A stretch of 64,000 nt of DNA from Lophium mytilinum (taxonomy: Eukaryota). The notes beneath the pieces are model-generated. The model ran no database searches. It saw only the letters and a list, made by a program, of their open reading frames with translations, and was not told the origin of the DNA. The stretch is from NCBI GenBank assembly GCA_010093605.1, contig MU004181.1:1922001-1986000 (forward strand), read 5' to 3'. Shown piece by piece: positions 4,590-36,605 of the stretch. Numbering within the stretch: the first letter of the stretch is position 1; every line of letters begins with the position of its first letter. The translations under genes were made by a program, and so were the position numbers.

Positions 4590-6251
4590 GTTTGGAGGTA
4601 TCTCAGAAAGTTCGCAGTCTTCGTCGAGTGTACTGAAGATGGACCACGGATGGATTTGTAAGAGCTAGGTTGCGACAATCTGGCGATGGAAAGGATTCTT
4701 GCCAAAAATGCGGGGTCCCGTCCGAGCCAGGGGCTGCCATGACTTGCCACCAAGCATACCTAGACACGGCAAGGAAAGACGGTCAAATCACACGCCACTC
4801 AGCAGTAATGCGTTCACGCACGTGCCGCCAGCCACTCCCTTAGTGCCAGCCATCCCATTGCATTTGCCGGTCGCGAAGTCTATTGCACGGACCTGGGTAT
4901 CCAATCCTTGAATTGACTCGGCAGCTGTGCCATGATCACTCATCCTCCAGTTGCTGGTTATGATTTGGTGAAAAGTTGAATGCTTTGACTGCTTCACAGC
5001 ATCAGCGGCCTCCTCCTCGACGGCGCTTCACAGCCTCTGTGCTATAGCTCTACAGTAAGTATCTAGAAGAGATCAACCTCATAGATTAATTGCATGGCAA
5101 CATTCACTCACATCCTCCTGGTAACACGCAGAACTGGTTGGGGATCTTGCTTTTACCATATATTACCCTAAAACTGCCCTGCCTGAGCTAGTCAAGATGG
5201 GGAGTGGGAAAACGAGAAAGCATGGAGACCCTGAGAAGTTTTCAAGAATTCCCAGGAGAAGAAACACCCATCATCTCTTCGAATAATCTCTCCAGTGCCT
5301 GGGGTTTGATTGCATCCTGAAAAGCTAGCGCACACATTATCAGTCACTCGTTTCCGACTGTTCCAGATCCAACTCCATGTCTCTAAATCAGTATCAACAC
5401 AGCCCATGCCTTGTCCCTCCCCCTGTCACTTCAGGTAGCCCATATGCGGCAAATCGAGACATCCCAAAAGTTGGGCGGCCAAAATCGATGCTGAGAGAGC
5501 AAGGTCAGATATTCATCCCCGTTGGTGCTTATGAGCTAGGGGTTGTGTCTTTTCAGCTCCAATGGTGAAAATGTTCATGCATTCGTGTTGGTTGACTGTC
5601 TCGTTATTATATCTGAACATATAGTCATCTTCAGCAACCTCCCGCTCAGGTTGCAATAAGTTGACTAGTTTATTTAGCGATTTAACCACTCTTGAGCAGT
5701 CCGAGTGTAACTAACTGTGAGCTAGAGATTCTCTCTTCACGTAGCCCATCCTGCTGTAAAGATGGATCCCGAAGTGGGGCTGTGATAATATTTAGGGAAA
5801 TTTATCATGATGTAAGGATGAAGCAAAGAGAACTCGACGATGATCTTTCCATAGGACATCCTAGAATTTTTATGCGGCATTCGTTCGTCGTCTTCGAGAA
5901 TGACACGCAAGGTGCTGTTGCCGAGGGTGTCAGAAGTCGCCGGATAAAGGCAGAGAAAAGAGATCGATATGTTATTTCTGACCTTATAGATACCGAACAC
6001 CCGTATGGCACTGATAAGGCCCACTTCACTGTTCTTTCTCGGTCGGCTAAGAGCTGGAGCTATATCGTTGGGAGCCTCTAGATAATAGGAGATCCCAATC
6101 TCCTGTAGTTGCTGCCTGCCCTCTCTCACGTCAAAATGCCGACATTGGCCAATCATTTTAGGACGATTTTGGGGATGAAGGCCAGTCTCTGCCAAGCCTA
6201 TTTACCCCATGAAGTGAAGTGAGGGGCCCCTTAGCGAGGGGCTTCCCCCTT

Positions 6252-6266
6252 ACCCCACAGTGGGGT
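6252..6266. promoter_or_regulatory. palindromic CCCCRC pair ACCCCAC-A-GTGGGGT upstream of the SDR
   Basis: Perfect 7-bp inverted repeat with a 1-nt spacer. The same hexamer recurs in nearly all cluster promoters. Confidence 0.5.
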
Positions 6267-6455
6267 TTTAAACAGATTTACACGGCAAGACCAAATCTGG
6301 GGTGCTATTCTCCAGTCATGAACATCATTTCCAATGCCGCGCATCAAAAGTAGTGACTCGCTTAAGACTATAAGGGTTGAGGGCGTTGATGGCGGGGAGA
6401 ATTTTGTCCTGTGAGCTGGTGGCCAATCCTGTTCGACAATCTCTGTTTTGGAAAC

Positions 6456-7469
6456 ATGACAACCTACAACCTTAAGAATGCTGAGTTCGAGGCGTTGAAG
6501 GGGAAAGTCATTTTGATCACTGGAGCTGCGACTGGCATTGGAAGAGCTACGGTGGAGCTTGCACATAGTATGTCTTCACAAGCTGCTGCGCCAAAGCTAT
6601 ATACTGATACACCGGCAGAGTATGGGGCAACCGTTGCGATTGGAGATTGGAATGAAACAGAAGGCGCGAAACTTGTGGCCAGTTTGAAAGAGTGTGTTCT
6701 TCCTATTACTGACATTGCTTTTAGCTGATGTTGTGATATGTAGGCGCGTATTGTTCCGTAAATGCGACGTCACCAAGTGGTCGGACGTACTTGCACTCTT
6801 CGAGGAGACCCGCAAGACTTTCGGTATCATCCATGCGGTTCTTTCCAACGCTGGCGTCAACCAAGAAGACCTCCTTCTTGACCACTTCGATCTCAAGACT
6901 GGAGAGCTTCTCGCCCCAGATCGTAAAGTTCTCGATATCAATCTGACAGGGACACTTTACGTGGTCAAGTGTGCAGTACATTATTTCAGACAGTGGCCGG
7001 AAACACGAACCCAGATCGTGATGACTGGTTCTGCAGCCAGTTATATCGATACCCCCCCGCTTCACATTTACTGTGCTTCAAAGGCCGGGGTGCTGGGACT
7101 AATGCGCTCATTGAGGACACAGCTCGTCAAGGAAAACATCACCATCAACATGGTTGCGCCGTGGATGACTAGTAAGTTTCATATAGAACTGAGCCGCTTC
7201 CAAGCTGACTGCTATACTATGTAGTAACACCTATGCTGTTGCAAGAGATAGTCGATATGTGGGGAGATTTACCAGCCAACCGGCCTACTGGTGTTGGAAG
7301 AGCGATACTTCTACCAATAGTACGTCCAGAAGTGAATGGGAAGTCTTTCTTTGTGGCCGGCCACGAGATTGTGGATTTTGAAGACAAGCTTCATGATACG
7401 CAGCCGCAATGGATGGGGCAAAGCCTGAGTAAAGCCGTCGATGAAGGGCAACGGCGTCTTATTCCGTGA
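6456..7469 (+). CDS. short-chain dehydrogenase/reductase
   Basis: ITGAATGIG, NAG and YCASK (YxxxK) motifs spread over ORFs 6411-6728, 6694-7224 and 7233-7469, joined by introns. Confidence 0.9.
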
Positions 7470-7775
7470 AAGCCAGCTGTGCTGGGACTGATTATGGTTC
7501 TGATTCCTTGTGGTAGCTCACACAGCACGTGCTCATTTAGATGTCTGATGCTGTGAAAAAGTCGAATGTTGCTGCGTTGTAGAAATCTTTGGAACTAGAA
7601 ATATGAGGATTAAGATGCTCTGTCCAAAAACTAGAACTTCTGTGCGCCCGTTGAGATTATAAGGCACCATCTACAGGAGAGATGTCTGTAAGAGTTGAAG
7701 ACTGTATGTTCATAGTATGACAGCCAAAAGCCTTCGCATGGTAGAAGAATTGAGACAGATGGACTAGGATTTTGA

Positions 7776-9386
7776 CTAGTATTTGGTGTTTACGGCCTCA
7801 AGACAATCCCGCTCAATCAGCGCAGCGTGCTTCTCACTCCTGACTCTCACTTTCACAGCAAATGGCGCCTCATTCTTCGTTATTTGGGGAATTGTCATGG
7901 TATCGATCGGGTGATTCTGTTTGAAAGTCAGTGAGACCGCTTTTGAGCTAGCCTTGGTGTTATGCAGCATTGGGAATTGATGGCTAGATCGTACCTTGTC
8001 TTCGTCAAACTCAAAGCAATACAGCAGCCTTGCAATTGCGATCCAAACGTTCATTTCGCCGACCTTCCAGCCGACGCACACTCGTCGACCGGGGCCGAAT
8101 GCCCAGTGGCCTTTCAATGCGTTAGTGAGATGCTCGTTCATGAATCGCTCCGGCCAGAAGCGCTCTGGCTGCTCGTATTCTTTCTCGTTAAGTGCTATAG
8201 CCCACGCATTCCAGGTGAAAATGGTCCCAGCTGGAAAACGATAGCCTTCGTATTCGTCATCACGGACGAGCGATGTTGGTGCCCCAATCTCAGCAATATT
8301 CGGGCGCCAGCGAAATCCCTCTTTCACAACGGCGGTGATATACGGAAGAGCCTCCCGATCGTCCCATCCCGGGAGACGTTCAGCGTTCGCACCGCAAACT
8401 GCATCCAGCTGAGCGCGCGCTCTGGCAGGCCAATCTGGGTATGTTGCTGCGCCTGCGATGATCTGCCCAATACTGACGCGGGACGTATCTGAGCCAGCTT
8501 CCATGAGCGTCCCAAGAAGGAAGAGCTGCTGCGTTTCGGAAAACTTTGTCTCTGCCTCTTGTTGCTTCAAGAAATCCACGGCAAAGCATGGTTTTTGCGT
8601 CCCTGCGTTGATGCGAGCGTGGACTGCATCGAGCTCTCTTTTGTATACTTTTTCCGTCATGCGAAAGACTTTCTCGCCTCGCGGTCGCCACCACTGCAGG
8701 CGTTTAGGAAGTTTGTTGAAGATATTGAATCCGTCTACGAGGTTCACGCCCGGCTGCTGATTCTCCAAGAAGAGCTCGATTGTCTCGAAGAGCTCGCGAG
8801 TTTGCTCTGAGTCCAGATCCGTGCGAGTCCCAAAAACCACCGACATAATAACTGAGTTTGCAAAGCGGCCATTGGCGATATACCACTTGCCTGGATGGTG
8901 CAGGTAATCGTAGAGAAGGTGGCGAGATTCGAGGTCTTGGTACGGCTTAAAGATGTCCTGCGACCTACCCGCAAGGATGTTATGCATGATCTTGCGGAGG
9001 GCACGCCACCGGTCATCGTATGGCATGAGCACAATGCGTGAATCGCCTGACATGATACTCTGCGTCATGGGAAACGGGGGCCGGGAGCAGTAAATCGCTG
9101 CTCTACGCTCCAAAAGATCATTGACCACACGTGACGAGTTCAAAAAGACCCAGGTATTGCCACCAAAACTGCAGGTAAACATCTCTCCATACTTTTCAGC
9201 AAGCTTCTTTGCCCATGGTCCCTGCTGCACCAGAGGGATCTGAAATGTGTTACCAAATACTGGAACTCCGGGTACACGAGGCGGGAGCTTGTATTTTCGT
9301 GCCTTTAGATGGGATTGGAGGATACCGTAAGCAAGGAATAGGACTGGAGTGCCGAAAAGAAGCAGGAGGAAGAGAAAGCTATCCAT
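7776..9386 (-). CDS. cytochrome P450 (copy A)
   Basis: N-terminal TM anchor, Pro-rich hinge, I-helix EAGSDTS, KEGFRWRP (ExxR), PERF and heme motif FGPGRRVCVG. Probably one short intron near the 3' end (~7920-7995). Confidence 0.95.
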   Translation of the reverse strand: MDSFLFLLLLFGTPVLFLAYGILQSHLKARKYKLPPRVPGVPVFGNTFQIPLVQQGPWAKKLAEKYGEMFTCSFGGNTWVFLNSSRVVNDLLERRAAIYCSRPPFPMTQSIMSGDSRIVLMPYDDRWRALRKIMHNILAGRSQDIFKPYQDLESRHLLYDYLHHPGKWYIANGRFANSVIMSVVFGTRTDLDSEQTRELFETIELFLENQQPGVNLVDGFNIFNKLPKRLQWWRPRGEKVFRMTEKVYKRELDAVHARINAGTQKPCFAVDFLKQQEAETKFSETQQLFLLGTLMEAGSDTSRVSIGQIIAGAATYPDWPARARAQLDAVCGANAERLPGWDDREALPYITAVVKEGFRWRPNIAEIGAPTSLVRDDEYEGYRFPAGTIFTWNAWAIALNEKEYEQPERFWPERFMNEHLTNALKGHWAFGPGRRVCVGWKVGEMNVWIAIARLLYCFEFDEDKVRSSHQFPMLHNTKASSKAVSLTFKQNHPIDTMTIPQITKNEAPFAVKVRVRSEKHAALIERDCLEAVNTKY

Positions 9387-9848
9387 GATGCAGATTGTGA
9401 ATGCACGTCAATGATTGCGGGTCTTATTGCTGCAAACTGCCTATGAGAGGTTGGTGGTCGTAGATAGAATGCAAAAGCTGGAGCGCCGCTGAGGCATTTG
9501 AGATTCTGTTAGGGTCTTGAAAAGACTCCAGGAGTAGCCCCACCTTACCCCAATGTGGTAGTTGGTGAGTTGTTGACCCATGGAGTAGGCTGCGGGGTCC
9601 CCCCATTCCCCCTCATTGGGCGTAACCTAACCTAATAGGTGGTCGGTTCGAATTCCCGGAACGCCCGCGCTGTCGTTGGCGAGTGGCGCGGAGAGAGAAG
9701 TATAGCCAGACAAGCTGCTCACGGCTTACCACGTTCGGGGCCAGCTACTAGCACGGTCATTTTGGTATTCGTAAACGACGTCCCTCTGTGTATTTGGCCT
9801 TGTCGCCCCCTCGTCGATCGTAAAACCTGGCCCGTCCTGAATGGAAAC

Positions 9849-11765
9849 ATGGAAATCCTTCTCAGTCATCGCGACATAGGCACTATCAAAGGGATCAGAT
9901 CAGCCGGCGTAGCCCAATTCCTAGGGGTCAAGTATGCGGCGCTTGCTGATCGTCTCGCTCCTCCAACTCTAGTGACCAGCTATGCGGCCGATCCAATCGA
10001 CGCGACGACATATGGGTGCGTAACAAGCCTCCTACAGCGTTTCATGGCAGCTTGACTGACCATTACAGTCCTAGTGCAGTGTCTCCACCAATGGGATGCG
10101 ATATGGAGTTTGGCATCATCCAGCACTCGTTGCCCAAACCTCAACAGCTACCATCGTCAGATCTTGACTGTCTAAACCTAAATATCACTGTGCCGCTCGA
10201 TAGCTCAGGTGAAATACATACTGCAGGCAAATTACCTGTGTTTGTCTTCATCCATGGCGGTGGTTTTGGTATTGGAGCAAATTGGTGGCCGCAGTATGAT
10301 GCCGCCGAACTTGTGCGCCTATCCAAGGCTAAGGGGAAGCCGGTTATTGGAATCAATATCAAGTAAGATCACCGTTTAGCTCAACTCAAGCCTTTAGCCT
10401 ACATCTTTGCCGAGAGTACCATCTGAACAGACATGCAGCTACCGTCTTGGTGCGCTAGGGTTCCTCACATCGAAAGAGCTTCGTCAGGCTGGATATCCGG
10501 GCAATAACGGCCTCCGTGACCAGAGGGCTGCACTGCAATGGATCAGGAAATTCATTGGAGTGTACGGAGGGTCCTCAGATGAAATAACAGTTGTTGGCGA
10601 AAGTGCCGGAGCTTGTAAGCGACCTTTTTGCTGCTTCAGAGTGTGTGAAATTCTAATCATTGTGCTCTACCAGTCTCCGCGACCATGCTCCTACAATCCA
10701 AAGAACCTTTGATGAAACGTACTGCTGCGTTTGGGGGATCACCACTTCTGTTCAAACCTCTCCCACTGCCGGTCACCGAGTTCGCGTATGAGAGTGTTCT
10801 TCAAGCTTTAGGACTTGTCGACAAGTCGCCAGAGTCTCGTATCCAAGCTCTTTTAGAAATACCAACGGATGAGCTGTGGCAGAAAATTCCACCCGCAATC
10901 CCGATGATGCCCTTCATGGACGACGATATCGTGACTGCCGAACCGACCTTCGCCATGTTTTATGGTCCGCTCGATCGTACCGAGCTAGCCTTTCCAGGAC
11001 TCAAGTGGTGCGAGGGCCTCATGGTGGGAGACTGTCAGTTTGATGTAACTGACCCTTCCCTTCCTCTCGACTTCCAAACATGAGATTTCAAATCTCAGGT
11101 GTCTGTTTTCAGATAGTACTAACACGCAAGCCATATAGGGAAATGTCTTTGGCCACATCGGCCTCCACGATCGCAAGACCGGCATAGCTACCGCCTTCAT
11201 AAGGTCGGTCGAGGCCACACTGAAATCTAATTCGACAGCAACGTCCGCTATTCTGGAGGCATACCAAATAAGGACGGATACGAGCGACGACGACGCACTG
11301 AACTCCATCTTGCAATTCGCAAGCGACATCACGTTCTACGCGCCAGCAATCACCATCGCCGCGTATTGGCCCTCCACCAGGAACTCCAAATCGTACCTGT
11401 TCCACTTCAATGAACCAAATCCGTGGGATGGTCTATACAAAGGCAAGGCGTCGCATGTTCTAGATGTGGCATACCTGTTCCAGAACTTCGCGAAGCATTT
11501 GACCGACGATCAGAAGGCCGTTGGTCGCGCTCTTGGTTCGGATTTCATAGAATTTGTGAATGGAGGTTCACCGTGGCAACCCGTTTCGGCTGGAAAGATG
11601 TGTGCTAGGGTTTATGGCCCCAGCGACGCAAAGGAGACTGCTAAGCTGGTTGATTCAAGCGACACGGTGGAGTCGGGGAGGAACAGAAAGATTCACGACC
11701 TTGCCAGCCTTGTTGGCTGTGATGCTCTTGCAGAAGTCTATATTAAGTTCTTCCAGGGAACGTAA
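9849..11765 (+). CDS. type-B carboxylesterase (COesterase family), copy A, no signal peptide
   Basis: FLGVKYA, DCLNLNI, FIHGGGF, N|YRLG, GLRDQRAALQWI, GESAG nucleophile elbow and the His motif ASHVLDV. Several introns. Confidence 0.92.
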
Positions 11766-12229: not shown

Positions 12230-13966
12230 TTAAAGCTTAATTCCCTGTTTTTCGCCCTCGACGAAAGTCTCTCGAATAATCCTGGCGTGTTTGGTGGAGC
12301 GCACAGTGATCTGACACTCAAACGGCTCCGGAACACTGAGGAACCCTCTAACCATCCTCGTGGTGGGCTCTACGACTCCGCCATCCAGTCCCTTTTTCTT
12401 GGCTATGTTGAACCCCCATAAAGTACGCACGATGTTGATATAAAGAGAGCGCTCAGCGACATGCACACCTGGGCATACCCTCCTTCCTGCCCCGTACGTG
12501 AAATGGTCTCGCTCGAGTGGGCTTTGAACGTTGATATAATGGGCCGTAGGTAGGGGCTTGTTGAGAAAGCGCGCTGGATCAAACTGTTCTGGTTCTGGAT
12601 AGAGCTCTGGATTCATGTGGATGGCCCTTTATCGTGACTTAGTCATATTCTCGTCTGACAGCTTCTGGCGGGAAAACTTACCACCAGTTCAAGATCGCTA
12701 CGGAGCCCTTGGGGATGAAGTGACCCTCATACCAGTCGTCCTCACTGGTTGCATGCATCATGCCAAACTTGTTGACAGGGCGCCAACGCAAGATCTCCTT
12801 GACCATACTTCTCGAGTACGGGAGATTCTGCTCATCGTTCCAATCCGGGAGTCGATCTGAGCCCACGACACGATCAATCTCCTCCTGGGCTTTCTTGGCG
12901 GTCTCCGGGAAAAGGACCATGGCTAGGATCCAGTTGTTCAGAGTTGTTGCTGTTGTCTCCGAGCCGGCTTCGACGAGGCCCCCGCATGTGTAAGCTGCGA
13001 GTAAATCATCGATGCCATTCTTCTTTGGGTCGTCAAGGTAGAACTGCTTGCAGAAACAGTTTGCGGCAGTACCCTCGTCCACCTCCTTCTTCAAGCGCTC
13101 CCACAAGTCTAGGTATACTTTACTGTCGTACTTGAATACGCTCTCAGCATAGCTACGCCAGTTTCCAAGCATCCACTGGGGCAGGTATGCCAAAGAAGGG
13201 AAGCTGTCTACTACATGTGCGCCTGGTGCTGTCATCTCGGTCAAATTGTCGAGGACAGTATAGATTTTCTTGATCAGGGGATCGTTCCACGATGGGATCC
13301 GATAGCCATAGGTCACCAGCATGATGACAGAAGCAGAGTAGCGCCGATTTATGGAGTAGAACTCGTCAGGCTCGTTCAAGAGATCGTGTAGAACTTGCTT
13401 TGATTCAAAGTCCTGCACGGGTTGGTACTTCACGGCGGTGGTTGAGCTAAGAAGCGCGTGGCTATGTTTACGAAGCTGTCTCCATTGCGGTCCATAGGCC
13501 ATGAACAGCTGTCGGCAAAATCGACTGGCGACATCTTGGGCCAATGGAAGGGGAGGTCTCGAAGAGTAGATTGCCGATTTCTTGTCCATCAAATCTTTGA
13601 CAGCTTGTGGCGACGAAAGCCACACATAGTCCGCTCCGCCTATCTTGGTGTAGAACACATCACCGAATTGTCGGTGCCATTGGACTGCTTTGGCTCGGAC
13701 CAGTTCAGAATCAGCCAGGTCGAATAAGTTACCAACAAGCGGCAATCCTTTTGGACCGGGTGGAAGGCGTCGCCTTCGCGAATCCTAAATGAAAAGCGGA
13801 GTCAGAAGTGTCTTAATGCTGCCGAGACTAGACTTGCACATACCCTGATCACATTCGGAACGGTAAAGAAATATACAGCAACTAAGAGCAAAACAGGCCC
13901 AACAACGAGCACAAGCGAAAGGGGGATGTGGGGCATCAAGCCACCAAAAAGCGCTGCGAATGCCAT
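12230..13966 (-). CDS. cytochrome P450 (copy B, related to copy A)
   Basis: TM exon MAFAALFGGLMPHIPLSLVLVVG from 13966, PPGPKGLP hinge, EAGSETT, KEILRWRP, PARF and heme motif TYGAGRRVCPG. Two introns. Confidence 0.93.
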
Positions 13967-14425
13967 GCTTGTATCGGATAGTCAACACAGCCTCCAGGAC
14001 AAAACAACTGCAACGAGTCGGACCAATGCTTATACATACACAAACGCCCCAGCTAAGAAAGCGGAAAGTAGCTGGTGGGCTGAATGTGAGCGTGGGGAGG
14101 CGCCAGGGCCGAATTACCCCTCAGTGGGGAGACCCCTCGCAACCGCCCAGAGCCTACTCCTGAACTGTACTGAAGTTGCATAGTCCTACCCCCATCTTTA
14201 AACTAAGTGGGATATGCAATGGATGTGAGGAACTTCTCTCGCCATCTGCGACCTTCCGCATCCCGTCACCGCCGCCGACGACGCGCCCCCTGACGTTGCT
14301 TATAGAACTGCTCAAGTCTCGTATGTATCATCTCAATCACGAGCCTATTCCAACCTTGGGCATCCCTGCAAATCATTGACCGCTGACATTTCAGAAGTTT
14401 AGGACCGTCTATCTGTTCTCGAAGG

Positions 14426-14839
14426 ATGGCGTCTCCCAAGGAAGTCACGGACGCACACAAGACGATATTTGAAGAGGGCATCAAGATGCGATATGCCGTT
14501 GCCGGGAAGGAGTACGTCGACAAGGCGCTTGCGAATGGGTCATCCGAGTTCGCCCGGCCGATGCAAGAGCTGGTTACGGAAGCCTGCTGGGGTTCTGTTT
14601 GGAGCAGGCCAGGGCTGGAGCGGAAGCAGCGCAGCTTGCTCAACATTGCAATGCTGTGTGCCTTGAATCGTTCTGCCGAGCTTGCAGTGCACGTCAAAGG
14701 CGCTGTGAATAACGGCGCGTCGGACGTGGAGATCAGAGAAACATTGTTGCAGGCGGCTATTTATTGCGGAATGCCCGCTGGGATCGAGGGGTTCAAGGTG
14801 GCAGAGAAGACGATAAACGAGATGAGGATTGCGAAGTAG
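14426..14839 (+). CDS. carboxymuconolactone decarboxylase (CMD/AhpD-like) family protein
   Basis: G..MR..VAG.EYV, WGSVWSRPGLERKQRSL, ELAVHVKGA.NNG and AIYCGMPAG match PcaC-like CMD proteins. No CxxC motif. Confidence 0.88.
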   Translation: MASPKEVTDAHKTIFEEGIKMRYAVAGKEYVDKALANGSSEFARPMQELVTEACWGSVWSRPGLERKQRSLLNIAMLCALNRSAELAVHVKGAVNNGASDVEIRETLLQAAIYCGMPAGIEGFKVAEKTINEMRIAK

Positions 14840-22354: not shown

Positions 22355-22437
22355 CCCCTCAAAGTAGCCCCTCAAATTGACCCCTCAAAGTGACCCCTCA
22401 CCCCGCACCCCACATCTCCACAAAATGTGTGCCCCGC
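22355..22437 (+). promoter_or_regulatory. four CCCCTCA units at 13-bp period followed by three CCCCRC boxes
   Basis: CCCCTCA starts at 22355, 22368, 22381 and 22394. CCCCGC at 22401, CCCCAC at 22408 and CCCCGC at 22432. Lies ~340 bp upstream of the alpha/beta hydrolase. Confidence 0.5.
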
Positions 22438-23938: not shown

Positions 23939-26894
23939 TCAGGAGACGCGGGCCCAGCTACGATAGTCTTTCTCGAATTGGCTTGCAAGCTCTTGCAGCA
24001 CTGAACCCATCCTCGGTGTTATGCCCCATACCCACACGTCATCTAGGGCCAGTTAGAACACAAGCGCAAATGCCGGCCACCGGCCGCAACCACCATCGTG
24101 ACTTACCAAGAAGGCTGGCCCACGTCGTCGCGACAGCCGCGGCCAGCGACGAGTCCCCGGAATAGTCACTCTCAACCTCCGCGAGGAGCTCTTTAACCTG
24201 GTCGAGAATCTTGCGCTCCCCTTCATCGGGATCCTGTACAGCCGACGATTTCTCCACCGTGTGGATCCATTTCGTAAGGAACAGTGCTATGGTGGAGGGT
24301 TACTCGACTGTTGCAATCAGAAAACACATGCAAAGGGCCTGCACTCACCACTGTCCCATCCCGCTACAGCGTGCTCGACGCTCCAATTGAACGCGGCCGT
24401 CTTCCTCACCAGCATCAAGCCAATTCTCACCGGCGCAAGTAACCCTTCGAATGCCTTGGCAACGGCCTTGGTATGGTGATGGCTACGCTGCTGCTTGGCA
24501 AAAACGTACACGGTCAAGGCTTGCTTAACCTCCTGTGGATTGTCCGCGAGCAACGCCATACGGTTGAAAGCTGCGGAATCCGTAAAGATTCGGTTGTACG
24601 CAATTCGCAACAGCGCTCTACAGTTGAACATAAGTGGGCCCTCTGTTTCGCTCCATGTGGAACCAGGATCATCGGCATGGCCTTGCGTGAGGGCCCCCTG
24701 GCACCTTGCGAGCGCTGTCGATGCCGCTGACAGCAAGACAGACTGGAGCGACCCGTCCGGGCCGACTTCGGACGCGTCCTGGCTGAATGACTGCGTGAAC
24801 TGCAGCTGGGTCCACATGTGCACGTTTACGGCGTGCATGAGGACAACGGTCGTGAATGCAGAAATACAGAGCGGACTGGAGTTGACGCTGTCTTCCTTTC
24901 TGGCTAAAATGAGCGTCGCCATGGCCTCACGAATGGTTTTGATCGGGCTCGAAACTTGAAAGTCTCTCAGACTAGCCCACTGCTCAGTCGAAGAGGCATT
25001 CCAGAGCTTCTCTTCACATGGCATCTCGATGATGAGGTCGTGGGTTGTCGAAAACCCAGGCGTCACGCCGTACGTTATAGCAATCATGTCGCTCAGGATG
25101 AAGAAGGCGCAAAGAACCCTAGTTTCGTTAGAAAAGAATCGAAAGGCCAAGGGTAAGCCAAATGTGGCTGCTGAGAAGAGCCAACAAGCAGGGCACTAAG
25201 TTCACAACCGGTGTGTCGCGGTAGCTTACCTTTTACTCGATTCCTTACAGGTCCATTCCTCCCAGGTCAAATCCTCATCCCGTCTCGTATCCGCGAGCAG
25301 CGCCGTCCTCCTCGCCGAGTAATCCACCACAAAAAAACCTAGCTTAGAGATCATCGCCTTCGCAATTGCCGGCTTGTCGCCAAACATGCCGAATACAGCT
25401 AACAGGGTGCGGGTCTGCGCAATCCACAGCGGACTTGGAGCTAGCGACGCGCCGAGCATATTTGGAATTGAATTTGCTTCCAGCATCTGCGTGGCAAGCT
25501 GATACAGACTCTTAGACCACTTCCGGTCGAGTCGGTAGAGCGCGCCTATTGCGCAAACAGCGAATGTTAAAGGGCTCGGCGTAGTGTGCAGGTCGAAGGA
25601 GGCGAAGTGGATGATGGGGAGGTGGCGGTGAAAGCAGTTTATGTAGCTTGTCACGAATCTTTGTATGTCCTTGGCACTCGGCAGGGGCGTTTGACTGCAT
25701 TCGTTTGCCTTTAGTCGGCTCTGCACGTCTCTATGCATCTGCTGGTACGCTAAGTCCTCGATTCTTGGATTTGGCAAATGAACGCCGCTATCCCATGATA
25801 TAAGAGGTAGGTTGGCGAATGGATTGCCGGTGTGTTCGTTCGCGAATCCGAGCGGGTGTCCCTGTATATTTGACTTCTTCCTCTCGGCGGCCTTTCCAGC
25901 TACAGACGAGTGCTCGGACCCCGACGCCCTGAGTTGTGGTGGGCGGGGAGTCTGCTGCGGTTGCCCTTGGTGCATCGTCTGCTCATTGTCTGGGCTGAAT
26001 CCGACGTTAGTCATGAAGGCTAAGTCTTGGAAGACGTTGAAGTCTGATCCAGTGCCCAGGTCCATGTTAGCCCACTCGTCAAACGGCTGCGGCGGGCTGA
26101 CGTCCTGCTGCTCGATCATGTCTCCGGGTTGCTGGTGCTGCTGCTGCAACGGAGATAGCAAGGCCTCTTGGTCGGGCATATTGACAGGAATCACGGGCTG
26201 GAAGTGGGATGAGTTTTCTGCCGTGAAACTGGTGGGCGGCGCATGTTGAAACGAGTCAAGATCCATATCTGGAGCCCCATCGATGCAGAAGTCCAATTCG
26301 GAGCCGAGATGGAAGTAGTCATCCACCCGTCGGGTCTGCGTAGGCGAGAACGTGCCTCCTGATGCTTGCGAAGAGCGCGAAGCGAGGTCGTTTGCTGGCT
26401 CTATGGCTGCACCTGATGGACTTGCCTGAGGGGCATCCTCGGGCGGTTGGTTCGCGAGCGCAGCCGGACGGCCGACATTGATGGTGTCGCTGGTGTCGAG
26501 CTGCCGTCGTTGCCCAGCGGGGGGAGCGGCGGCGGTGTCAACCGGATGGATGGACCTTTCGTGCCTCTGGACTAGGTCTCTGCCGACGGCGTGGTCAGTC
26601 TTTGCGCTTTAATAGCGGAGGGCCGAGGGGAGACTTGCTTGCGGGCGTAGCGACGTGTGCAGAAGCGGCAGGCAAACGGCTTCTCTTGAGTGTCTGCAAC
26701 ACCGGTGAGGCCAGGCCGGCGGCGGCGGAGAGGCGAGCGCGAGGTGTAAACTTACGAACGCGTTCGTGGCGGGCACAGTGCTCGCTCCGCTTGAACTCGC
26801 GGTGGCAGCTCCGGCACTTGTGGATTCTTCTTGGCCGACCCGTCTTAGTAGTGGAGGTGTCTGGCGGTGGAACCTGCAGGTCGGTGAGAGACAT
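23939..26894 (-). CDS. C2H2 zinc-finger transcription factor (Adr1/AmdX-type) with fungal-specific TF domain, copy B
   Basis: Fingers HKCRSCHREFKRSEHCARH and CRFCTRRYARK|DLVQRH. Also YINCFHRHLPIIH, AVCAIGALYRLDR, WSVEHAVAGW and VWVWGITPRMG, ending at TGA 23939-23941. Collinear with copy A. Confidence 0.85.
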
Positions 26895-27496
26895 TGGGCG
26901 TGTCCACGATGGGGGAGGGGAGTGGTGGAGGCGGGGATGGGTGCGGAGGGGATCGTGTCGGGGGTGGATGCGAAGCTGAGCAGTATGGTTGCCAAGCCGG
27001 CATGTTCGAGCTGCTCGGTCTGCCGAGCGTGAAGGCCAGGGGAGCAGCCGATCAAGCGGGGAAGGGGCCTGGGCGGTCTGTGCTGAGGCTAATTTTGACC
27101 ATCCTTCTCGACATTTTGCACACAGAACTCGCATGCACCGAAAGCTTCTACAGAGCTATATTCTAGCTACACGATTGCACTTTGGCCTTATCGTAGTCAT
27201 CAGGAATACTGCCATTGCGTTCTTGACAGGCTCAAAGGCAGTCTTACTATCTCCCAATAGTCTGAACCACGCTCAAGTTCCAGGACAATATCATCGGTGC
27301 TTTCAGACACAAATATCGTGCTAGAACGGACTCTTCGTGCATGACTCAAGCATTCCTAGACGGAAAATCAACATTGACACTGCGAGTGCTCGCCTTGCAT
27401 TATCTAGCTAATCTTCTGCGTATTTAGTAAGCCTTATACACCATGTTCATGGGCACGCGTCCCTCACTGCGCTATCACGTGGCTGTCAGGTACTTA

Positions 27497-27528
27497 CCCC
27501 ACACCCCGCATTCCCGGTCATACCCCAC
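27497..27528 (+). promoter_or_regulatory. triple CCCCRC box in the divergent TF-B/MFS promoter
   Basis: CCCCAC at 27497, CCCCGC at 27504 and CCCCAC at 27523. Confidence 0.5.
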
Positions 27529-27781: not shown

Positions 27782-29452
27782 ATGGGCTTTGGAATCCTCG
27801 AGGACAAATCAGACCTCGCTCATGTTCCGGGCACTGTTCTCCTCGCCGAGAAGATATCACAACCTGGTGACGTTCTCGCACAACTCAAGCATGGCAGTGG
27901 AGCAGATGCTCAGATCGTACTCGTCCCACAGCCTAGTGAGGACCCCAACGACCCCCTGAATTGGCCATACTGGAAGAAACTGTCCATTGTTGCCATTCTT
28001 GTGTACGGCTCTTGCCTATGCGCCGCAACAGTCGGCCCTTTGCTGAACGCAAGCATCGCTGTGCTCGCCATGGATTTCAAGACATCTTTCAAGGACATCA
28101 CTCTCATGTCTGGCTATCAACTCCTGGCTGCTGGCTGCTCCGGCCCGATTGTGTCTGCTCTGGCGAGGAAATATGGAAAACGTCCAGTATTCTTAGCTTC
28201 TTCCCTCTTCGCAGTAATAGGGTCAATTATGGGCTCGGCATCCCATTCTTACAATACTCTACTTGCGGCTCGCATCGTCCAGGGGTTCTCTATTTCCGCA
28301 TACGAGTCCATCATATTCTCAGTTATTCCGGACCTCTTCTTCCTCCACCAACGTGGACTGTTCACGGCCATCGTGAGCTTTACGCTAAGCGCTGTCTCCA
28401 ATTTGAGCAGCGTTGTCGCAGGGGCTGTCACGAACAATCTCGGATGGCATTACCTGTTCCACCTCCTCATAGTTACCGTGGGCCTACAGCTCATCCTGCT
28501 ATATCTGTTCGTGCCAGAGACGACTTATCATCGCGACCGTCTTTACGAAGTTGACCTAGCCTCGACCGACAACCTCCAAGAACTGGCAGAAGCTGAGGCT
28601 CGGCACGACCCAAGAACACAGAAAGCTATCCAGGACCTCAAGATCGAGAAGACCGTTACAAACACCAGCTCAGTACCTCCGCCCAAGAAGACTTTCATCC
28701 AAGAACTTGCAATATTCACGGGCACCCACAGCGACGAAAGCCTCATCCAGCTCGTCTTCGCTCCGGTATTGTGCTGTCTCAATCTGGGAGTTCTGTGGGT
28801 GGTCGTCGTCAGTGGCACCGTGACGTCCTTTTACGTCGGCATGGCCTATGTCGCCGCCCAGATTTTCTCTTTCCCTCCATACAACCTTACCGCAGCCGGC
28901 GTGGGCTACTTGTCCCTTGGACCATTTCTTGGCGGTGCACTCGCCTCCATCGTGTTAGGTCTAACCAACGACCCTCTGATTATCTGGTTCACAAAACGCA
29001 ACAAAGGCATCTTCGAGCCTGAAATACGTCTTTTACCAATCATTTTCAGCTCCGTCGGTGGTGTTGGCCTTATTCTATACGGTGTGCTCGCTCAAAGAGG
29101 AGACAACCTTTACCTAGTGGACTTCATGTGGGGCCTTATGCTCTTCGGAGCCGTCTTCATCTTCACGTCGGCCTCGGCGTACGCTATCGATGCGTACCGG
29201 GACATGAGCAGCGAGCTGTTCATTGCCAGCATGATGTTGAAAAACTTCCTATTTTACGCTTACAGTTACTTCATGAACGACTGGGCCGCTTCTGCTGGAC
29301 CAGCCCAAGTGTTTGAAGTTTTTGGCGGCGTGTACTTTGCACTGGCGCTGACTACCATTCCTCTTTATATCTTTGGAAAGCGATATCGAAGCTTCTGGCA
29401 TCGTCATAACCTTTTGGAGATGCTTCATGTTCGCACTCACTCTGCGTTTTAG
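27782..29452 (+). CDS. MFS transporter (Hol1-like / DHA1-related)
   Basis: MGFGILED..., PQPSEDPNDPLNWP, KYGKRPV, PETTY and EPEIRL. About 12 hydrophobic segments, intronless. Confidence 0.92.
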   Translation: MGFGILEDKSDLAHVPGTVLLAEKISQPGDVLAQLKHGSGADAQIVLVPQPSEDPNDPLNWPYWKKLSIVAILVYGSCLCAATVGPLLNASIAVLAMDFKTSFKDITLMSGYQLLAAGCSGPIVSALARKYGKRPVFLASSLFAVIGSIMGSASHSYNTLLAARIVQGFSISAYESIIFSVIPDLFFLHQRGLFTAIVSFTLSAVSNLSSVVAGAVTNNLGWHYLFHLLIVTVGLQLILLYLFVPETTYHRDRLYEVDLASTDNLQELAEAEARHDPRTQKAIQDLKIEKTVTNTSSVPPPKKTFIQELAIFTGTHSDESLIQLVFAPVLCCLNLGVLWVVVVSGTVTSFYVGMAYVAAQIFSFPPYNLTAAGVGYLSLGPFLGGALASIVLGLTNDPLIIWFTKRNKGIFEPEIRLLPIIFSSVGGVGLILYGVLAQRGDNLYLVDFMWGLMLFGAVFIFTSASAYAIDAYRDMSSELFIASMMLKNFLFYAYSYFMNDWAASAGPAQVFEVFGGVYFALALTTIPLYIFGKRYRSFWHRHNLLEMLHVRTHSAF

Positions 29453-30021: not shown

Positions 30022-31552
30022 TCAATGCTTCGAGTTCCCATTCAGAGTAGTGCTCTTCAAATTAGCCATAATCTTCTCAACTTCCTCCTTGTGCCCCGAA
30101 AAATTATCCACCAGACTGTCCCACATTTTCGGCTCATGCTCATGCTTCTTCTTGCTATTCCATGCGTACTCCGTGATGGTGAATGGCCTGCTACTCTCAA
30201 ACATGAAAGCGATGGAACCCTTGGAGATTTGCATGACTGGAGGGTCGGCCTTCGAAGCCTCGGCGAACTCTTCATACGCAACACCATGAGGTACCATGCC
30301 GCACTCGAACGAAACGCTGCCTGGCTGGAACTCATCAGATCGGCCGCCGTAATCTCCATATATGAGGCCCATGAGCTCAGACGCCGCGTTGCGATGATAG
30401 TAAGGCGGCCGATACGTGTGAGACGCAACGTCCCAGCGCGGTGAGAAGATCAAAATGTCTGCCAGCGGAGCCGTCGGATCGCGCGACCTCGCGGTCAGGA
30501 CACAGAAGATGGACGGGTCGATGTGGTCTACTGAGATGGATCCCACATTGACGAACTTGGTGAGATCGTACTTGAATGGCACGTAGTTGCCGTGCCACGC
30601 AACGACGTCGAATGGGCAGTGCCGCTGGGTGCTCTTAAAGAACTTGCCGCCAAGCTTGTAGATAATCTCCCATGGATCGTCTTGCGTGACTTCGTAGGCC
30701 GCCTTGGGGTGGAGGAAGTCGCGAGCGTTTGCGAGCCCGTTGGCTCCAAGAGGACCTAGCTCGGGAAGTTCGAAGTTTGAACCCCAGATCTCGAGAATGT
30801 ATCCTCGGGTAGGGCCATCGACCTTGACTTTGAAGCGTTGGCCTCGTTGGATGATGCAGATCTCGCCGGGTTGAACGTAAAGATGTCCATACTCGGTTTG
30901 GATATCTAGCGCACCCTGTTGTGGCACAATGCAGAAGTCTCCGTCTGAGTTTACAAAGGCTCGCTTCTCCATGCTTTGATTGCACAGATAGACGTGTGTA
31001 GCTAGACCTTCCCTCAACATGGGATCGCCGGCGCCTGCGATCGTTTTCAGCCCGGAAACGAAATCGACCTTGTCGCTGCTCTCCGGAAGATCGAAAGGCA
31101 GCCAGGCCAGCTGAGTCGGAGAGACGCGAACCCGAGGATTTATAGGGAGGAAGTTTGATTCCGTATCATTATTATCAGGCATGTCGGTCTACGGCCATAG
31201 TTAGATCTAAATATATGAATGGGTACGAGAAAGTACTCACAAAGCCTTGATGAGCAACCGCAGGCCGTGCGCGATACAACCATGCCTTCTTGTTCAAATG
31301 CCTCGGAGCAATAAAAGAAGAAGCAGTCAGTTGCTCGGCGTATAATCCAAAGCGAACGCATCTGGGGCTATTTTGACCCTGTGGAATGGTACCGGGGATA
31401 GCTTCAGACTCAAAGGAATTGCCTAAGCCGGCCATGTACTCGTATGGATCATTCTTCCGAGTAGCGAACGACGGGACGGCGCCATTCTTCTGCGTCTCGG
31501 CCCAGTGGAAAATATCCTGATACTCCTTGGAGTTTGACAGTTCGGCAGGCAT
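30022..31552 (-). CDS. hmgA: homogentisate 1,2-dioxygenase family protein (divergent paralog)
   Basis: SEAIPGTIPQGQNSP, GLYAEQL, WLYRARP, PELGPLGANGLANARDF, DVVAWHGNY, DHIDPSIF, and the iron-ligand motifs RPPYYHRN.ASE and PHG. One intron at ~31180-31240. Confidence 0.93.
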
Positions 31553-32713
31553 GGTGGATTTGATGTAATGCTTACACGAAACGAGAAGAAATGGTATTGG
31601 GTGACTGGTTTGTATCGATTGGCTCAGTATTTAGATGTGTTGTATATGAATCTATGATGAATGTGGGGATGGTGGGGTAGTTAAGGGGGCTACTAAAGTG
31701 GTCCGATGGGGCGATGGAGGGGCACCGAAATGGGCTGATGGAACATCCCGTGCCGTTTTTGACTCTGGCAACCGAAATAATGAGACGAACGAAAAGGTCC
31801 TTTAGGCAGATGTCTACAATGTAAACTTTTAAAGATCAAGATCTACATTTTTACTAAAGCTAGTACAGGCCTCTATATCTTCGGTATCTCGCGAGTACAT
31901 ACATTGAACTCCCCGGTATGTCTCGCTAGAATAGCGGACAATTGAGTAACCCGACGGTTTCCCCATTGGGGTATCTCGTATTGAACGCTGGAAGTAGGAC
32001 CTGTGGCTTCGTTTAAACCATGATCGTAATGCGAACTTTTGCTAGAACATCCCGGAAAGGACGATCTTGATGTTTCTATCTACGTGTCACCCCTCCTCTG
32101 CCGTCAGGAGACTTGAGACTGTGAAGTATCGATACGGTACGGATATGATCGAGGAGCTAGACTGCTTAGAGCATAGATTGAGGCATGGAAGTATCTCAGA
32201 ACTCCCTGGCAGCCAACAAGCTTTAGAGAATACCAGTGGGCCAAAATTCGGAAAATTGCTGCATTGGTTGACATCAACGTAGTCAAAAGTAGCGATGATG
32301 ATCGGTATTCGATATGTCTATTATTGCTACTCATATAGAGTGCAAGATTTAATATCTATGATCTTAAGCCATATAGAATGTCACATATCGGCTACATCAT
32401 TGCACTTTGCTGGCTCGGCTTGCATAGAACAACATACTTTGGTGAGTCGGCAAGGGGGCAGATCAACCAGGAGACTGCGCTCACTCATTGTGAGTATTTT
32501 GCTTGCGAATGTCGATACATGCGCCAGCACCAGCTCAAAGCAGGATAGTGAGATTGAAAGTATGCATGAGGCGAAGTAGAAAGTAGTGATCGAGCCTATT
32601 GGACGCAAAGCTTAGTAGAAGCAGGGCTAGGCTACCACAGAGAAGTTTCTATGTAGATGTTCTTTGAGTGCGACCAACGCGTTCAATTACTATGTGAACC
32701 ATTTGCGTAGAAT

Positions 32714-33848
32714 TTACAGATCTGCTCTAGCATTGTCTCCAGCCCAAGCCCTTCGAATAAGTTCTTGGATCGACGCCTTCTCCAGCGGTCTCGGGTTAGG
32801 GTATGGCTTTGATAGTGCAATCTCAGCCGCCTTGGCGACATCTTCTTCCTTTAGACCAAAATCTTTCAGTGCCCTTTTTACTCCTAGTCGTTCTAGTAAC
32901 AGATTTAATCCCTTAATTGCATCTCCGTCGCTATCCGGCAGCACTTCTGCAAGCTTCCGCATGGCTTCCGGAATTGCGGGAGCATTGTACGCTAGGGCAT
33001 GGGGCAGAACGATCGTATGTGTCTCGGCGTGAGGGAGATTGAAAGAACCTCCGAGAGTGTGGCAGAGTTTGTGGTGAAGTGCCATGTCGACACTACCAAG
33101 GCAAAATCCGCAAAGCCACGCGCCGTATAGAGCATCTTTCCGGGCATCGATGTCACTTGGCAGTGAAACTAGGGCCGGAAGTGAGCGGGCAAGAGACCGT
33201 ATACCTTCAAGCGCGAGGACGCTGACGATTGGATTCTTATTGGCTGCATAGAGAGCCTCCACTGTCAAGAAGAGTTGCTTATCAGTATGGTCATGGTGAC
33301 TTTCGTGTCTGGAGAGGCTGACCTGAGTGCGCAATTGCATTCACTCCACTTGTCGCACTCATCATGGCGGGCAATGTGAGTGTGAGGTCGATGTCATAGA
33401 TGACTGTTGTAGGAAGAATCGCTAAATCTCTGCGCGTTGTCTTGAGCCCGTCCACCGTCTCACCCAGTATCGGCGTCATCTCGCTCCCAGCATAGGTGGT
33501 CGGAATGCAGATATGCGGCTTGCCGGTTCGTACGCTGAGTGCCTTGCCGAGCCCAATAGTGCTGCCACCGCCGAGCGAAACGAAGCTATCGACACCGAAC
33601 GCGTTCACCACGCCTAGTGCTTTCTCGGTGATGTGGATGGGCGTGTGCATAGTCGCTTCGGAGAAGACATGGTCGGCGGCCGCTCCAAGAGACTTGGCCA
33701 GCTCTAGAATGGAACCTTGTTGCTCTGGTGTGGAGAGAAAGAGTGGCGTATGCACTTTCAGCCGTGCGAGCTCTGCGGCCAGGGTCGACAGTGTGCCTGA
33801 GCCAAATATGACTCGGCTGGGATTTCCGTTGTATTCAAAGCTAGCCAT
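32714..33848 (-). CDS. maleylacetate reductase (iron-containing alcohol dehydrogenase family)
   Basis: RVIFGSG, ATMHTP, GGGSTIGLGKA, IPTTYAGSEMTPILGET, SGVNAIAH and MALHHKLCHTLGGSFNLPHAETHTIVLPHA. One intron. Confidence 0.93.
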
Positions 33849-34279
33849 AATTCAACAAAATGTTTGGTGAGCGTTGCAAATCCAGATATCTCGGGCATAT
33901 CTTCAGATAATGGATATGCAGGGCAGCGTGGGGTCAGGCCCGCAGCAGGTCTGTTTGATAGTTAAAAACATTCCTTAAAACAAGACACTTACAGTACAGC
34001 AGACGAGCGGAAAGAACAGGAGTCAGCCTAGACTGGATTAGAATGCCTGTTCGTACCCCACCTGGCCCTTGATAGCTCCCCTTGCACGTTTGGTTTTGTC
34101 TCCTCCGCTTTTTTGATCTCTTCGCCCCGTGGGGCGTGCTGCTCTGAACACGAAAATCTACCCCACTTCCGCGGGGAACACCGTTTGGGGAACACAGTCA
34201 AGAGTTATGGACAATGCATCTACAGACCGCGGAGGGCTCGCAGAACCTCTAGACAACGTCTCTATAGTCTCTCTTCGCA

Positions 34280-36057
34280 ATGTCTGTCACACTGAATCAT
34301 GCCTCTCTCGGTGCCCGCCTGGAAGGACTCGAGGTTGGGAAGCTCTGGCAGTTCAGAGGCATCCAGTATGGAACAATACCCGCCAGATTTGCGCGAGCAT
34401 GCCCGAAGAAGCTTGAGGGTAGAGTGGACTGTACTCGTTACGGGTATTGCTTCTCAGACTGGTGGTCAACACAAATGTTTTCGCTGACTTGAGTAGGCCT
34501 CGTTGTCCGCAACTGAACTTCGATGTGCGACACCTTCTCCGTATCCCTCAAGATATCGAGCTGCCCGCTGAGCCAGAAGACGAATTTCAATGCCTAAACC
34601 TAGACGTGACGATGCCGCCTCTCAAGCCAGGGCCCAGGCCTCAGTTGCTGCCTGTTTTATTGTGGATTCATGGTATGCTTTGCTGTGTTTCGAGTAAGAG
34701 CAGTGCTTACCTAATTCTGTTCTAGGTGGTTCCCAGATTGCGACATTCGGGAGTTCGGCTTCAGGATTATGTGGTCAGTTTCTTTGCTTCGTATTCCGTC
34801 CCCATCTCTACTAGACAACTTTAACGCAAACCCTGTACCACAGATATGACCAGAATTGTGTCTGACTCGGTAGATCTTGGGTACCCGTTCATAGCGGTGG
34901 GTATTCAATATCGGCTGAACATGTTCGCTTTTGGGAACGGCAAAGGAGAGAAGAATCTAGCTCTCAAAGACCAGAGGCTAGCGATCGATTGGGTTGTGGA
35001 ACATATTGGAGGATTTGGCGGCGATCCAGTATGAGTTCCCAGCACTCTAAAGTTATACAAAGTCAGTGTTTGTGTCTAACCTAAGCTAGGCAAACATAAC
35101 TCTTGCTGGCGAGAGCGCGGGCGCGGTCTTCTGCCATGCACATGTCGTAGCTCAAGCTCCGATACACCAAGCGATACTTTCTTCGGGAACACTATATCTA
35201 TCGCCACCATTACCAGTCCAGAATGGCACTGCTCTCATAAACAATGTGGCTAGGGAGCTCGAGAAACTGGGCCACAAAGATATGGAAACTGCTCCACCGC
35301 ATATTCTTCTCAAAGCGCAGGCCAATCTCGGCATTAAATCTGTATGGATTCAAATGGAACCTGCCTTTGAGGACTGGGAAAATAAAACGGGAAATACTAC
35401 GCAGTTACTCATTGGAGATGTCGAGTTTGAGGTACGCTTCTACTACAGCTTTTCAATGCGGAAGGAGACTAACATAGTCAGAGTATCATATGGAGGAATG
35501 GAATCGAGATGCTAGAGCCCGATTACATTGCAAAATGCTTCGACAACCTCGGGGACGACAGTGCGGCTGTGAAGCGTTTGTACGGCATCTTGCCCGACCG
35601 AAGTACATCTTGCAAAATCGGAGCTCTTGACTTGATTACCGACCAGAGGTTCGCGCTACCGGTGGAGAAGGTTCAACGGCTATGGTTGAACTCTGGAAAG
35701 CCTGCCTACCGGTACTTACTGGATCAGCCAAATCCCTGGCAATCGTCGAATCGTTCTCATCATGCTGTGGATTTGGTATTTCTTTTCGGCGTATTCGACA
35801 CTTCAAATCCAGCAGCAGAAGCTGTTGGAAAGGCGATGCGGACGAAATGGATAGAGTTCATAAATGGGAGGGCCCCGTGGGATTCTTCTCGTGCTTTCGC
35901 GTTTGGGCCGTATGGAGAGGCGCAAAGTATCGATCAATCTGTGGTAGACATGCGGAGACGACGAGCTCATCTAGACCTCGTGAGCAAAGTAGGTTGGTCA
36001 AAGTTTAACGCGGCAGTTGTGCCACTGATTATGGGCCGTGTCAGCCTACTCAATTAA
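34280..36057 (+). CDS. type-B carboxylesterase, copy B, no signal peptide
   Basis: QFRGIQYG, EDEFQCLNL, LWIHG, QYRLN, LKDQRLAIDWV..HIGGFGGDP, LAGESAGA and the His motif SHHAVDL. Multiple introns. Confidence 0.9.
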
Positions 36058-36605
36058 TACTATCGACTCAAACAGCTCGCAGGTGATGATTGAATCCACC
36101 TGATGTCCCTCTGAGGAAATACAAGCGATGTGGCCATGATTTGTAGTTCGATATTAACTTGATCAAGGTAGAAAAGGAACGAAACAAAGTGATAGCAGGA
36201 GTGACGGCTGATCAAGGAACAGCCACTGCTAATTATTCATTGACCAGAACCAGCAACTCCATGGGTTGAACGTGGAGAATTGCTCACTGCGCTCTTACGG
36301 CGTACATATCGACCGGAACGTTCACTTACCCATGACGGAAAGCCATTGCGAGAGTGGCAGGAGAGGGTTCTCGCACAACTCTGCTCAGTCCTGATTGAGC
36401 GTAAGGTGTTTGACTGCAACGGGGCTCTTTTCCCGACTCCACACCATCTAGCAAACCCCGCAAAACCCCCAGAATGCGGGGTATGACAGCCTTGCGTAGT
36501 ATATCTAACCGTTACAGTTGGAGCAGGGGGTCTTCGCTTTGAAAGGTTGAGCTAAATATATACCGGGCTGGCACTGTAGCCATATGAGCTGAGAATCGAC
36601 CTCCA

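Follow-up and report, generated by a model that had tools for sequence, protein, structure and literature searches.

The closest described counterpart of the locus reported here is the hxn regulon of Aspergillus nidulans. Its regulator HxnR has two C2H2 zinc fingers and a PF04082 domain, is encoded in its own cluster and is self-regulated, and a GHGGGG site is predicted in all hxn promoters but one (PMC8478523; a prediction only, as of 2021). Constitutive HxnR mutations imply a closed default state (PMC5746545, section 3.4). The same 2017 paper called C2H2-class pathway-specific regulators rare in fungi and cited AmdA and AmdX as possible exceptions. The repressor CreA has the consensus SYGGRG (PMC8844935), and CRE-1 has the core TSYGGGG by DNA affinity purification sequencing (PMC7084071). 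Here we analyzed a 64,000-nucleotide stretch of the Lophium mytilinum genome (NCBI GenBank assembly GCA_010093605.1, contig MU004181.1, positions 1,922,001 to 1,986,000 of the forward strand), hereafter the window. A hexamer, GYGGGG/CCCCRC (the box), recurs in the promoters of a 23-gene catabolic cluster that starts left of the window and encodes two C2H2/Fungal_trans transcription factors, TF1 and TF2. The box is probably the binding site of these two factors, which would act as pathway-specific activators of the cluster.

The upstream regions of the 23 cluster genes (at most 400 bp per gene, merged into 18 regions and 7,150 bp) contain 49 boxes, compared with 9.3 expected from 128 background upstream regions and 8.7 ± 2.7 (maximum 18) in 1,000 dinucleotide shuffles. 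At least one box was found in 18 of 18 cluster regions and 46 of 128 background regions, and at least two in 16 of 18 and 11 of 128. A first-pass annotation of the window had placed boxes, mostly in multiples, upstream of nearly every cluster gene, and the comparison with other upstream regions bears this out. All 29 positions it listed carry GYGGGG or CCCCRC; the list was incomplete, as positions 1–38,500 hold 50 sites, with 16 of the others in gene bodies. The background was drawn from 79 stretches (805,400 bp) of the same genome, in which 175 gene groups were predicted and 47 were dropped for having less than 150 bp of non-coding DNA or lying at a stretch end; gene starts came from a purpose-made codon-score caller and are approximate. 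Stricter callers gave 43 and 46 background promoters, recovering only 3 and 2 of the cluster starts, and a background of 1.5–1.9 sites per kb, about one quarter of the cluster rate. Enrichment was four- to fivefold under every caller. In an unguided ranking of hexamers in the cluster promoters, CCCCAC, ACCCCA, and CCCCGC took ranks 1–3.

The window as a whole has 78 sites, compared with 58.25 ± 8.02 in shuffles (n = 100; none reached 78), and this excess is confined to promoters. The DNA up to 300 bp upstream of the start codons of the window's 18 cluster genes has 29 sites in 4,544 bp (6.4 per kb), whereas the gene bodies hold 16 in 28,168 bp (0.57 per kb) and the remaining intergenic DNA 5 in 5,788 bp. 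Promoters left of the window, which the first-pass annotation did not see, contain 17 sites in 1,904 bp, compared with 2.5 expected. To the right of the cluster, where that annotation mentioned a few, there are 28 in 25.4 kb, which is the background rate.

Eighteen cluster genes, assigned by Pfam matches, lie within positions 149–38,499 of the window, which is part of contig C1 of the 43.4-Mb assembly. They encode two 3-hydroxyisobutyrate-dehydrogenase-like proteins, a short-chain dehydrogenase (SDR), three cytochromes P450, two carboxylesterases, a carboxymuconolactone-decarboxylase (CMD)-family protein, a FAD monooxygenase, a metallo-lactonase-like protein, an alpha/beta hydrolase, an MFS transporter, a homogentisate-dioxygenase-like protein, an iron-containing alcohol dehydrogenase (Fe-ADH)-family protein, one Zn2Cys6 factor, and the two C2H2/Fungal_trans factors. 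The cluster, which the first-pass annotation began at 4710, reaches about 9.5 kb beyond the left edge of the window and carries boxes there, giving approximately 23 genes (18 in the window and 5 to the left) in 48.5 kb. The five additional genes, in the adjoining 10 kb (contig positions 1912001–1922000), encode a FAD-linked oxidase, a P450, a second FAD monooxygenase that is 56% identical to g8, a second metallo-lactonase-like protein, and a protein (7204–8201 of that piece, minus strand) with a Rossmann-like motif read by eye at its start and no Pfam or NCBIfam match in the exon tested. The next gene to the left, for an MFS transporter, has no box within 800 bp upstream, and was taken as the cluster edge and dropped from later counts; including it, 18 of 19 regions have at least one site. 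The only box of g1 falls outside the window, 55 bases beyond its left edge, in a promoter common to g1 and a metallo-lactonase gene. Features of the cluster within the window are as follows.

149–1280, plus strand: g1, 3-hydroxyisobutyrate-dehydrogenase-like (Pfam NAD_binding_2/11; end approximate).
1497–4589, minus strand: TF1, two C2H2 fingers and a Fungal_trans domain, helices RSEHCSR and RRDLVKR.
4710–4715, plus strand: single box 121 bp upstream of TF1, preceded by an A-run.
6221–6397: boxes upstream of g3, with GAGGGG at 6221 and 6236, an inverted pair at 6253/6260, and 6392.
6456–7469, plus strand: g3, SDR (Pfam), with homologues in related loci L042 and L045.
7776–9386, minus strand: g4, cytochrome P450 (Pfam).
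9538–9614: g4/g5 divergent promoter boxes, 9538 and 9592, plus CCCCTC at 9609.
9849–11765, plus strand: g5, carboxylesterase (Pfam).
12230–13966, minus strand: g6, cytochrome P450 (Pfam).
14092–14138: g6/g7 divergent promoter boxes, 14092 and 14124, plus CCCCTC at 14117 and 14133.
14426–14839, plus strand: g7, CMD-like (PcaC-like, under the curated cut-off).
15150–16778, minus strand: g8, FAD monooxygenase, closest solved structures PnpA (E 8e-32) and HspB (E 6e-25); 3' end approximate.
16887–16912, plus strand: boxes upstream of g8, 16887 and 16907.
17303–18354, minus strand: g9, 3-hydroxyisobutyrate-dehydrogenase-like.
18490–18591, plus strand: boxes upstream of g9, 18490 and 18586.
18705–19643, minus strand: g10, metallo-beta-lactamase fold, lactonase-like.
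19813–19840: g10/g11 divergent promoter, inverted box pair with sites 19815 and 19833.
19988–21919, plus strand: g11, Zn2Cys6 and Fungal_trans factor (Pfam), covered by RNA contigs.
22355–22608: array upstream of g12, four CCCCTC (22355–22394), then 22401, 22408, and 22432; 22603.
22775–23662, plus strand: g12, alpha/beta hydrolase (PcaD-like, under the curated cut-off).
23939–26894, minus strand: TF2, two C2H2 fingers and a Fungal_trans domain, 865 amino acids, helices RSEHCAR and RKDLVQR.
26931–27528: TF2/g14 divergent promoter boxes, 26931 and 27056, and a triplet at 27497, 27504, and 27523.
27782–29452, plus strand: g14, MFS transporter (Pfam), with a homologue in L045.
30022–31552, minus strand: g15, homogentisate-dioxygenase-like, a paralogue of the genome's hmgA.
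31663–31677, plus strand: boxes upstream of g15, 31663 and 31672.
32714–33848, minus strand: g16, Fe-ADH family (Pfam), presumably maleylacetate-reductase-like.
33928–34176: g16/g17 divergent promoter, five boxes at 33928, 34056, 34129, 34161, and 34171.
34280–36057, plus strand: g17, carboxylesterase (Pfam).
36456–36481: inverted pair upstream of g18, 36456 and 36476.
36606–38499, plus strand: g18, cytochrome P450, the final cluster gene.

Most of these genes resemble enzymes that degrade aromatic compounds, and together they are probably one jointly switched pathway. NCBIfam matches of the cluster enzymes fall under their cut-offs, so that PnpA, HspB, PcaC, PcaD, and HmgA name resemblances. 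The genome has three HmgA-like genes in total and, away from the cluster, another Fe-ADH-family gene sharing 65% identity with g16 (L102, L103, and L105); its hmgA adjoins a likely fumarylacetoacetase gene, read by eye. The factor, monooxygenase, dehydrogenase, lactonase, and esterase genes each occur twice, which suggests that two related modules were joined.

The enriched word is (A)TGYGGGG(T), with GHGGGG as a looser form. AT directly precedes the box at 16 of 49 cluster sites and 34 of 444 background sites, and T directly follows it at 25 of 49 and 117 of 444. With the post hoc ATG flank, the 48.5-kb cluster has 21 copies of ATGYGGGG compared with 2.4 expected (2,151 genome-wide); on the plus strand the cluster has 13, and no other 48.5-kb stretch within the contig's first 2.97 Mb has more than four. 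A G is required at position 1: in the cluster promoters TGYGGGG is enriched (25 vs 2.0 expected) but TCYGGGG is not (4 vs 2.5). GAGGGG is also enriched (14 vs 3.7–5.4 expected), and its tolerance fits the leucine at +3 of finger 2 under the usual zinc-finger code. Boxes with GTG (26) and with GCG (23) are about equally common. Promoters typically carry two to five sites, 100–350 bp upstream of the start codon. Adr1-type dimeric elements consist of inverted half-sites at fixed spacing; here, the 21 neighboring pairs within 60 bp comprise 11 direct and 10 inverted ones, with spacings of 5–54 bp, and a fixed palindromic or dimeric element was rejected. The inverted pairs reported at 6252–6266 and 19813–19840 are thus real yet define no dimeric element. 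The absence of fixed spacing and orientation suggests separate binding events.

The TF1 open model, which is sequence-based, has 921 amino acids in four GT-AG exons, with a fifth exon read by eye. In TF2, five introns are joined in contigs of run X1, giving an open model of 865 residues; one of them, a GC-AG intron at 26579–26639, splits finger 2 and is joined in the RNA contigs. The RNA evidence comprises the spliced contigs of this run, the single candidate among the available runs, none of which is catalogued as RNA; read depths and uncovered genes were left unused. TF1 and TF2 are 44% identical over the C-terminal exon, and both have the helices RSEHCxR and R(R/K)DLVxR given by the first-pass annotation. 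By the usual C2H2 code, finger 1 (R-1, H3, R6) reads GGG and finger 2 (R-1, D2, L3, R6) reads G-x-G; the residues of both factors therefore predict G-x-G-G-G-G, which matches the box. The likeness to yeast Adr1 suggested by that annotation holds for the class of two-finger module, to which AmdA and AmdX of A. nidulans also belong (TF1 vs structure 2ADR, E 1.6e-11), but HxnR is the closer precedent and the genome has its own Adr1-like factor, L087 (E 1e-21). At E <= 1e-20 a protein search returned 15 homologues, whose source names place them in Nectriaceae, Xylariales, Sporothrix, black yeasts, and Mollisia; none carries a characterized name. All five of the 15 that show both fingers keep the code residues and helices. 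Two database entries are labeled carboxylesterase and 3-hydroxyisobutyrate dehydrogenase, which suggests gene models fused with the same neighbors. Autoregulation, also proposed earlier, is weakly supported: TF1 has one box (4710), and TF2 has two near its start, with the triplet nearer the divergent MFS gene.

The locus resembles the hxn regulon in several ways. Both TF1 and TF2 have two C2H2 fingers and PF04082, the regulator genes lie within a catabolic cluster (as they do in L042 and L045), GHGGGG-type sites occur in the cluster promoters, and the genes suggest catabolism of ring compounds. Unlike hxn, the cluster lacks a molybdo-hydroxylase and has two factors instead of one, and the AreA motif HGATAR is not enriched (19 vs 19.8 expected from a small set of 46 background promoters). 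A probable hxn (nicotinate) cluster was found separately on contig C5 (2136001–2156000; L113, L097, and L112), where a factor, L097, probably HxnR, lies beside a xanthine-dehydrogenase-like gene, and 2-oxoglutarate-dioxygenase-like and old-yellow-enzyme-like genes were recognized by eye. Its four promoter stretches are sparser, with 3, 1, 2, and 1 GHGGGG. A genome search with the TF1 C-terminal exon did not return the L097 locus, and one exon comparison showed no similarity. By these comparisons TF1 and TF2 are not HxnR orthologues, and the locus would work like the hxn regulon without being a member of it. The L097 helices (RSEHLQR/RKDLL) are nearly those of TF1 and TF2, so cross-talk between the two regulons is possible. 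To our knowledge, Adr1, AmdA, and AmdX are not cluster-encoded, and a literature search found no measured motif for any of the three.

Metagenomes were scanned for related clusters, yielding five loci from 35 candidate stretches, three of which (L041, L043, and L044) were not long enough to include promoters. L042, from another fungus, encodes a factor at 54% identity with the finger-1 helix RSEHCAR, homologues of the hydrolase, CMD, monooxygenase, and SDR genes, and phenol-monooxygenase-like and dihydrodipicolinate-synthase-family genes. A box lies within 500 bp of six of its seven genes. Its promoters contain 13 sites in 3,152 bp (4.1 expected) and nine TGYGGGG (0.9 expected), with the variant pattern of the Lophium cluster (G-starting, GGGG-ending words). 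L045 (1500–20400) is a distant cluster, with genes for two FAD monooxygenases, three SDRs, an MmgE/PrpD protein, an aldehyde dehydrogenase, an MFS transporter, and C2H2 and Zn2Cys6 factors. Both loci have boxes upstream of the C2H2 factor as well. No relative was found in the viral contigs searched. Within the Lophium genome, the site counts of five unlinked paralogues of the cluster enzymes are 0, 0, 1, 2, and 1 (two of the five starts placed by eye), and GYGGGG was not found in the promoter of the unlinked hmgA.

Site enrichment and position, conservation, the helices, and TF2 splicing are observed here, and we infer binding, activation, inducer sensing, and substrate class. Assignment of the box to TF1 and TF2 rests on co-location, co-conservation, and precedent. 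Several results weigh against it. The code residues of seven further C2H2 factors encoded in the genome are identical or similar to theirs (L086, L087, L088, L093, L094, L097, and L095, which is CreA), and with such helices in the first six of these the box does not single out TF1 and TF2. Comparative support amounts to one good locus, L042. Both L042 and L045 were scored against the Lophium background, not their own; GAGGGG in L042 is not significant (4 vs 1.6, P 0.08), and L045, with a factor only 23% identical, is borderline (7 sites in 2,571 bp vs 3.3, P 0.053, in five of six regions). The GAGGGG enrichment has no replication outside the window (13 sites inside, one outside), the ATG flank was picked after both cluster parts had been inspected, and the unlinked paralogue with two sites has them at -31 and -7, within a C-rich leader. 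An unlikely alternative is that a broad C2H2 factor encoded elsewhere (the AmdX/Adr1-like L087 or a relative) binds the boxes, the cluster factors fitting through shared family specificity. L087 has suitable helices (RLEHLKR/RRDLLLR) and matches the Adr1 structure 2ADR, and background upstream regions have about 1.3 sites per kb compared with 1.1 in non-coding DNA. A broad factor leaves unexplained why density peaks at one cluster and ends at its edges, why sites are scarce at unlinked paralogous enzymes, and why two intact cluster factors are present, with relatives beside the same enzymes in other fungi.

It is less probable still that the boxes are CreA sites and the cluster is under heavy carbon catabolite repression. 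CreA, like Mig1 and CRE-1, is a two-finger C2H2 protein with an overlapping site; all 49 sites fit SYGGRG, as the first-pass annotation had cautioned, and 25 of them match the TSYGGGG of CRE-1, including its preceding T, a further point against the assignment to TF1 and TF2. The genome has a creA finger pair that looks intact (L095, RLEHQTR/RSDELTR), and the cluster genes resemble those for catabolism of alternative carbon sources. Many of the sites can probably be bound by CreA. The shared promoter box is confined to the cluster; as many sites also match the CRE-1 motif, the claim of a self-contained regulon was too strong. However, CreA is a global repressor encoded elsewhere, with glutamate, not leucine, at +3 of finger 2, and the variant profile departs from its consensus: only two of eight SYGGRG words are clearly enriched, and C-starting and GGAG variants are not (SYGGAG 22 vs 19.7; CYGGGG 9 vs 6.3, with CTGGGG alone 8 vs 3.8, P 0.04), while GTG and GCG are equally common. 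The 5' A/T-rich flank required by Mig1 is not enriched (7 of 49 vs 55 of 444, P 0.65), the box at 4710 being the only one with five A/T at -6 to -2, and the hmgA promoter lacks GYGGGG. That only G-starting, GGGG-ending words are enriched, as in L042, argues against CreA as sole factor. The Zn2Cys6 factor g11 lies inside the cluster and is covered by RNA contigs, fungal pathway-specific regulators are usually of this class (PMC5746545, section 3.4), and L045 holds a Zn2Cys6 gene too; that g11 is the real regulator and the boxes secondary is nevertheless very improbable, since CGG-pair patterns are not enriched (21 vs 25, 18 vs 31, and 21 vs 35) and searches of L042 and L045, both of which have a C2H2 factor, found no g11 homologue. 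Chance, base composition, or duplicated promoters can hardly account for the boxes. The hexamer is common (about 1 per kb genome-wide) and arises in C-rich leaders, but promoter GC content does not differ between cluster and background (0.512 in both), none of the 1,000 shuffles reached the count, the replication in the promoters outside the window refutes this reading, and blastn among the cluster promoters found no similarity, bar one 23-bp G-rich match to L042.

If TF1 and TF2 bind the boxes, finger 1 of each would read GGG and finger 2 G-x-G with a free middle base, in separate binding events at two to five sites whose number would set the response. As modeled on the closed default state of HxnR, the Fungal_trans region probably blocks the activity of the factor as long as no pathway compound is sensed. 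An intermediate would then unlock TF1, TF2, or both, the boxes would be bound, and expression of the whole cluster would be raised; CreA may compete at some boxes. The set of enzymes suggests that a phenolic or heteroaromatic compound is oxidized, hydroxylated, and cleaved at the ring. In the proposed route, the MFS transporter would import an aromatic or heteroaromatic molecule, perhaps an ester or lactone, which the esterases, lactonases, and P450s would hydrolyze and oxidize. PnpA and HspB hydroxylate para to a hydroxyl group, and the two FAD monooxygenases may likewise give a hydroquinone-type ring, which the HmgA-like enzyme would cleave, the products being processed by the Fe-ADH-family, PcaC-like, and PcaD-like enzymes.

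Some boxes may be transcribed. The inverted pair at 19813–19840 falls within RNA contig 19710–20240 and could be in a transcribed leader, and boxes 26931 and 27056 probably lie in the TF2 leader. An X1 contig skips 85 bases with CT..AC ends at 21885–21971, a minus-strand intron over the 3' end of g11; a spliced antisense transcript thus overlaps the 3' end of this plus-strand gene. The box array at 22355–22437, upstream of the antisense transcript, may serve it as well as g12. Ahead of the g12 triplet, four CCCCTCA units at an exact 13-bp spacing (22355–22399) resemble a short tandem site expansion. To the right of the cluster are an intergenic short tandem repeat with a 10-base unit (39341–39460), a 100-base N gap (44668–44767), a peroxidase-family exon beside an exon with four WSC domains, probably one gene (51281–54400, minus strand), and an AT-rich stretch, possibly a decayed repeat (56000–60000, GC 0.32–0.42).

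The regulatory logic proposed here is itself unsurprising. An open-literature search found no description of the cluster or the factor family, and the locus would be a second case of a C2H2 cluster regulon, with a statistically clear and conserved motif. That motif delimits the edges of an uncharacterized 23-gene pathway, and overexpressing or deleting the two regulators is expected to reveal its substrate. More tentatively, TF1 and TF2 might represent a second inducer-sensing C2H2/Fungal_trans family, recruited independently of HxnR, spread over several classes of filamentous ascomycetes, traveling with modular aromatic-degradation clusters, and activating via CreA-overlapping sites. Were this so, these factors and CreA would compete for the same six bases throughout the 23-gene pathway, and the outcome would determine whether it is induced or repressed by glucose.

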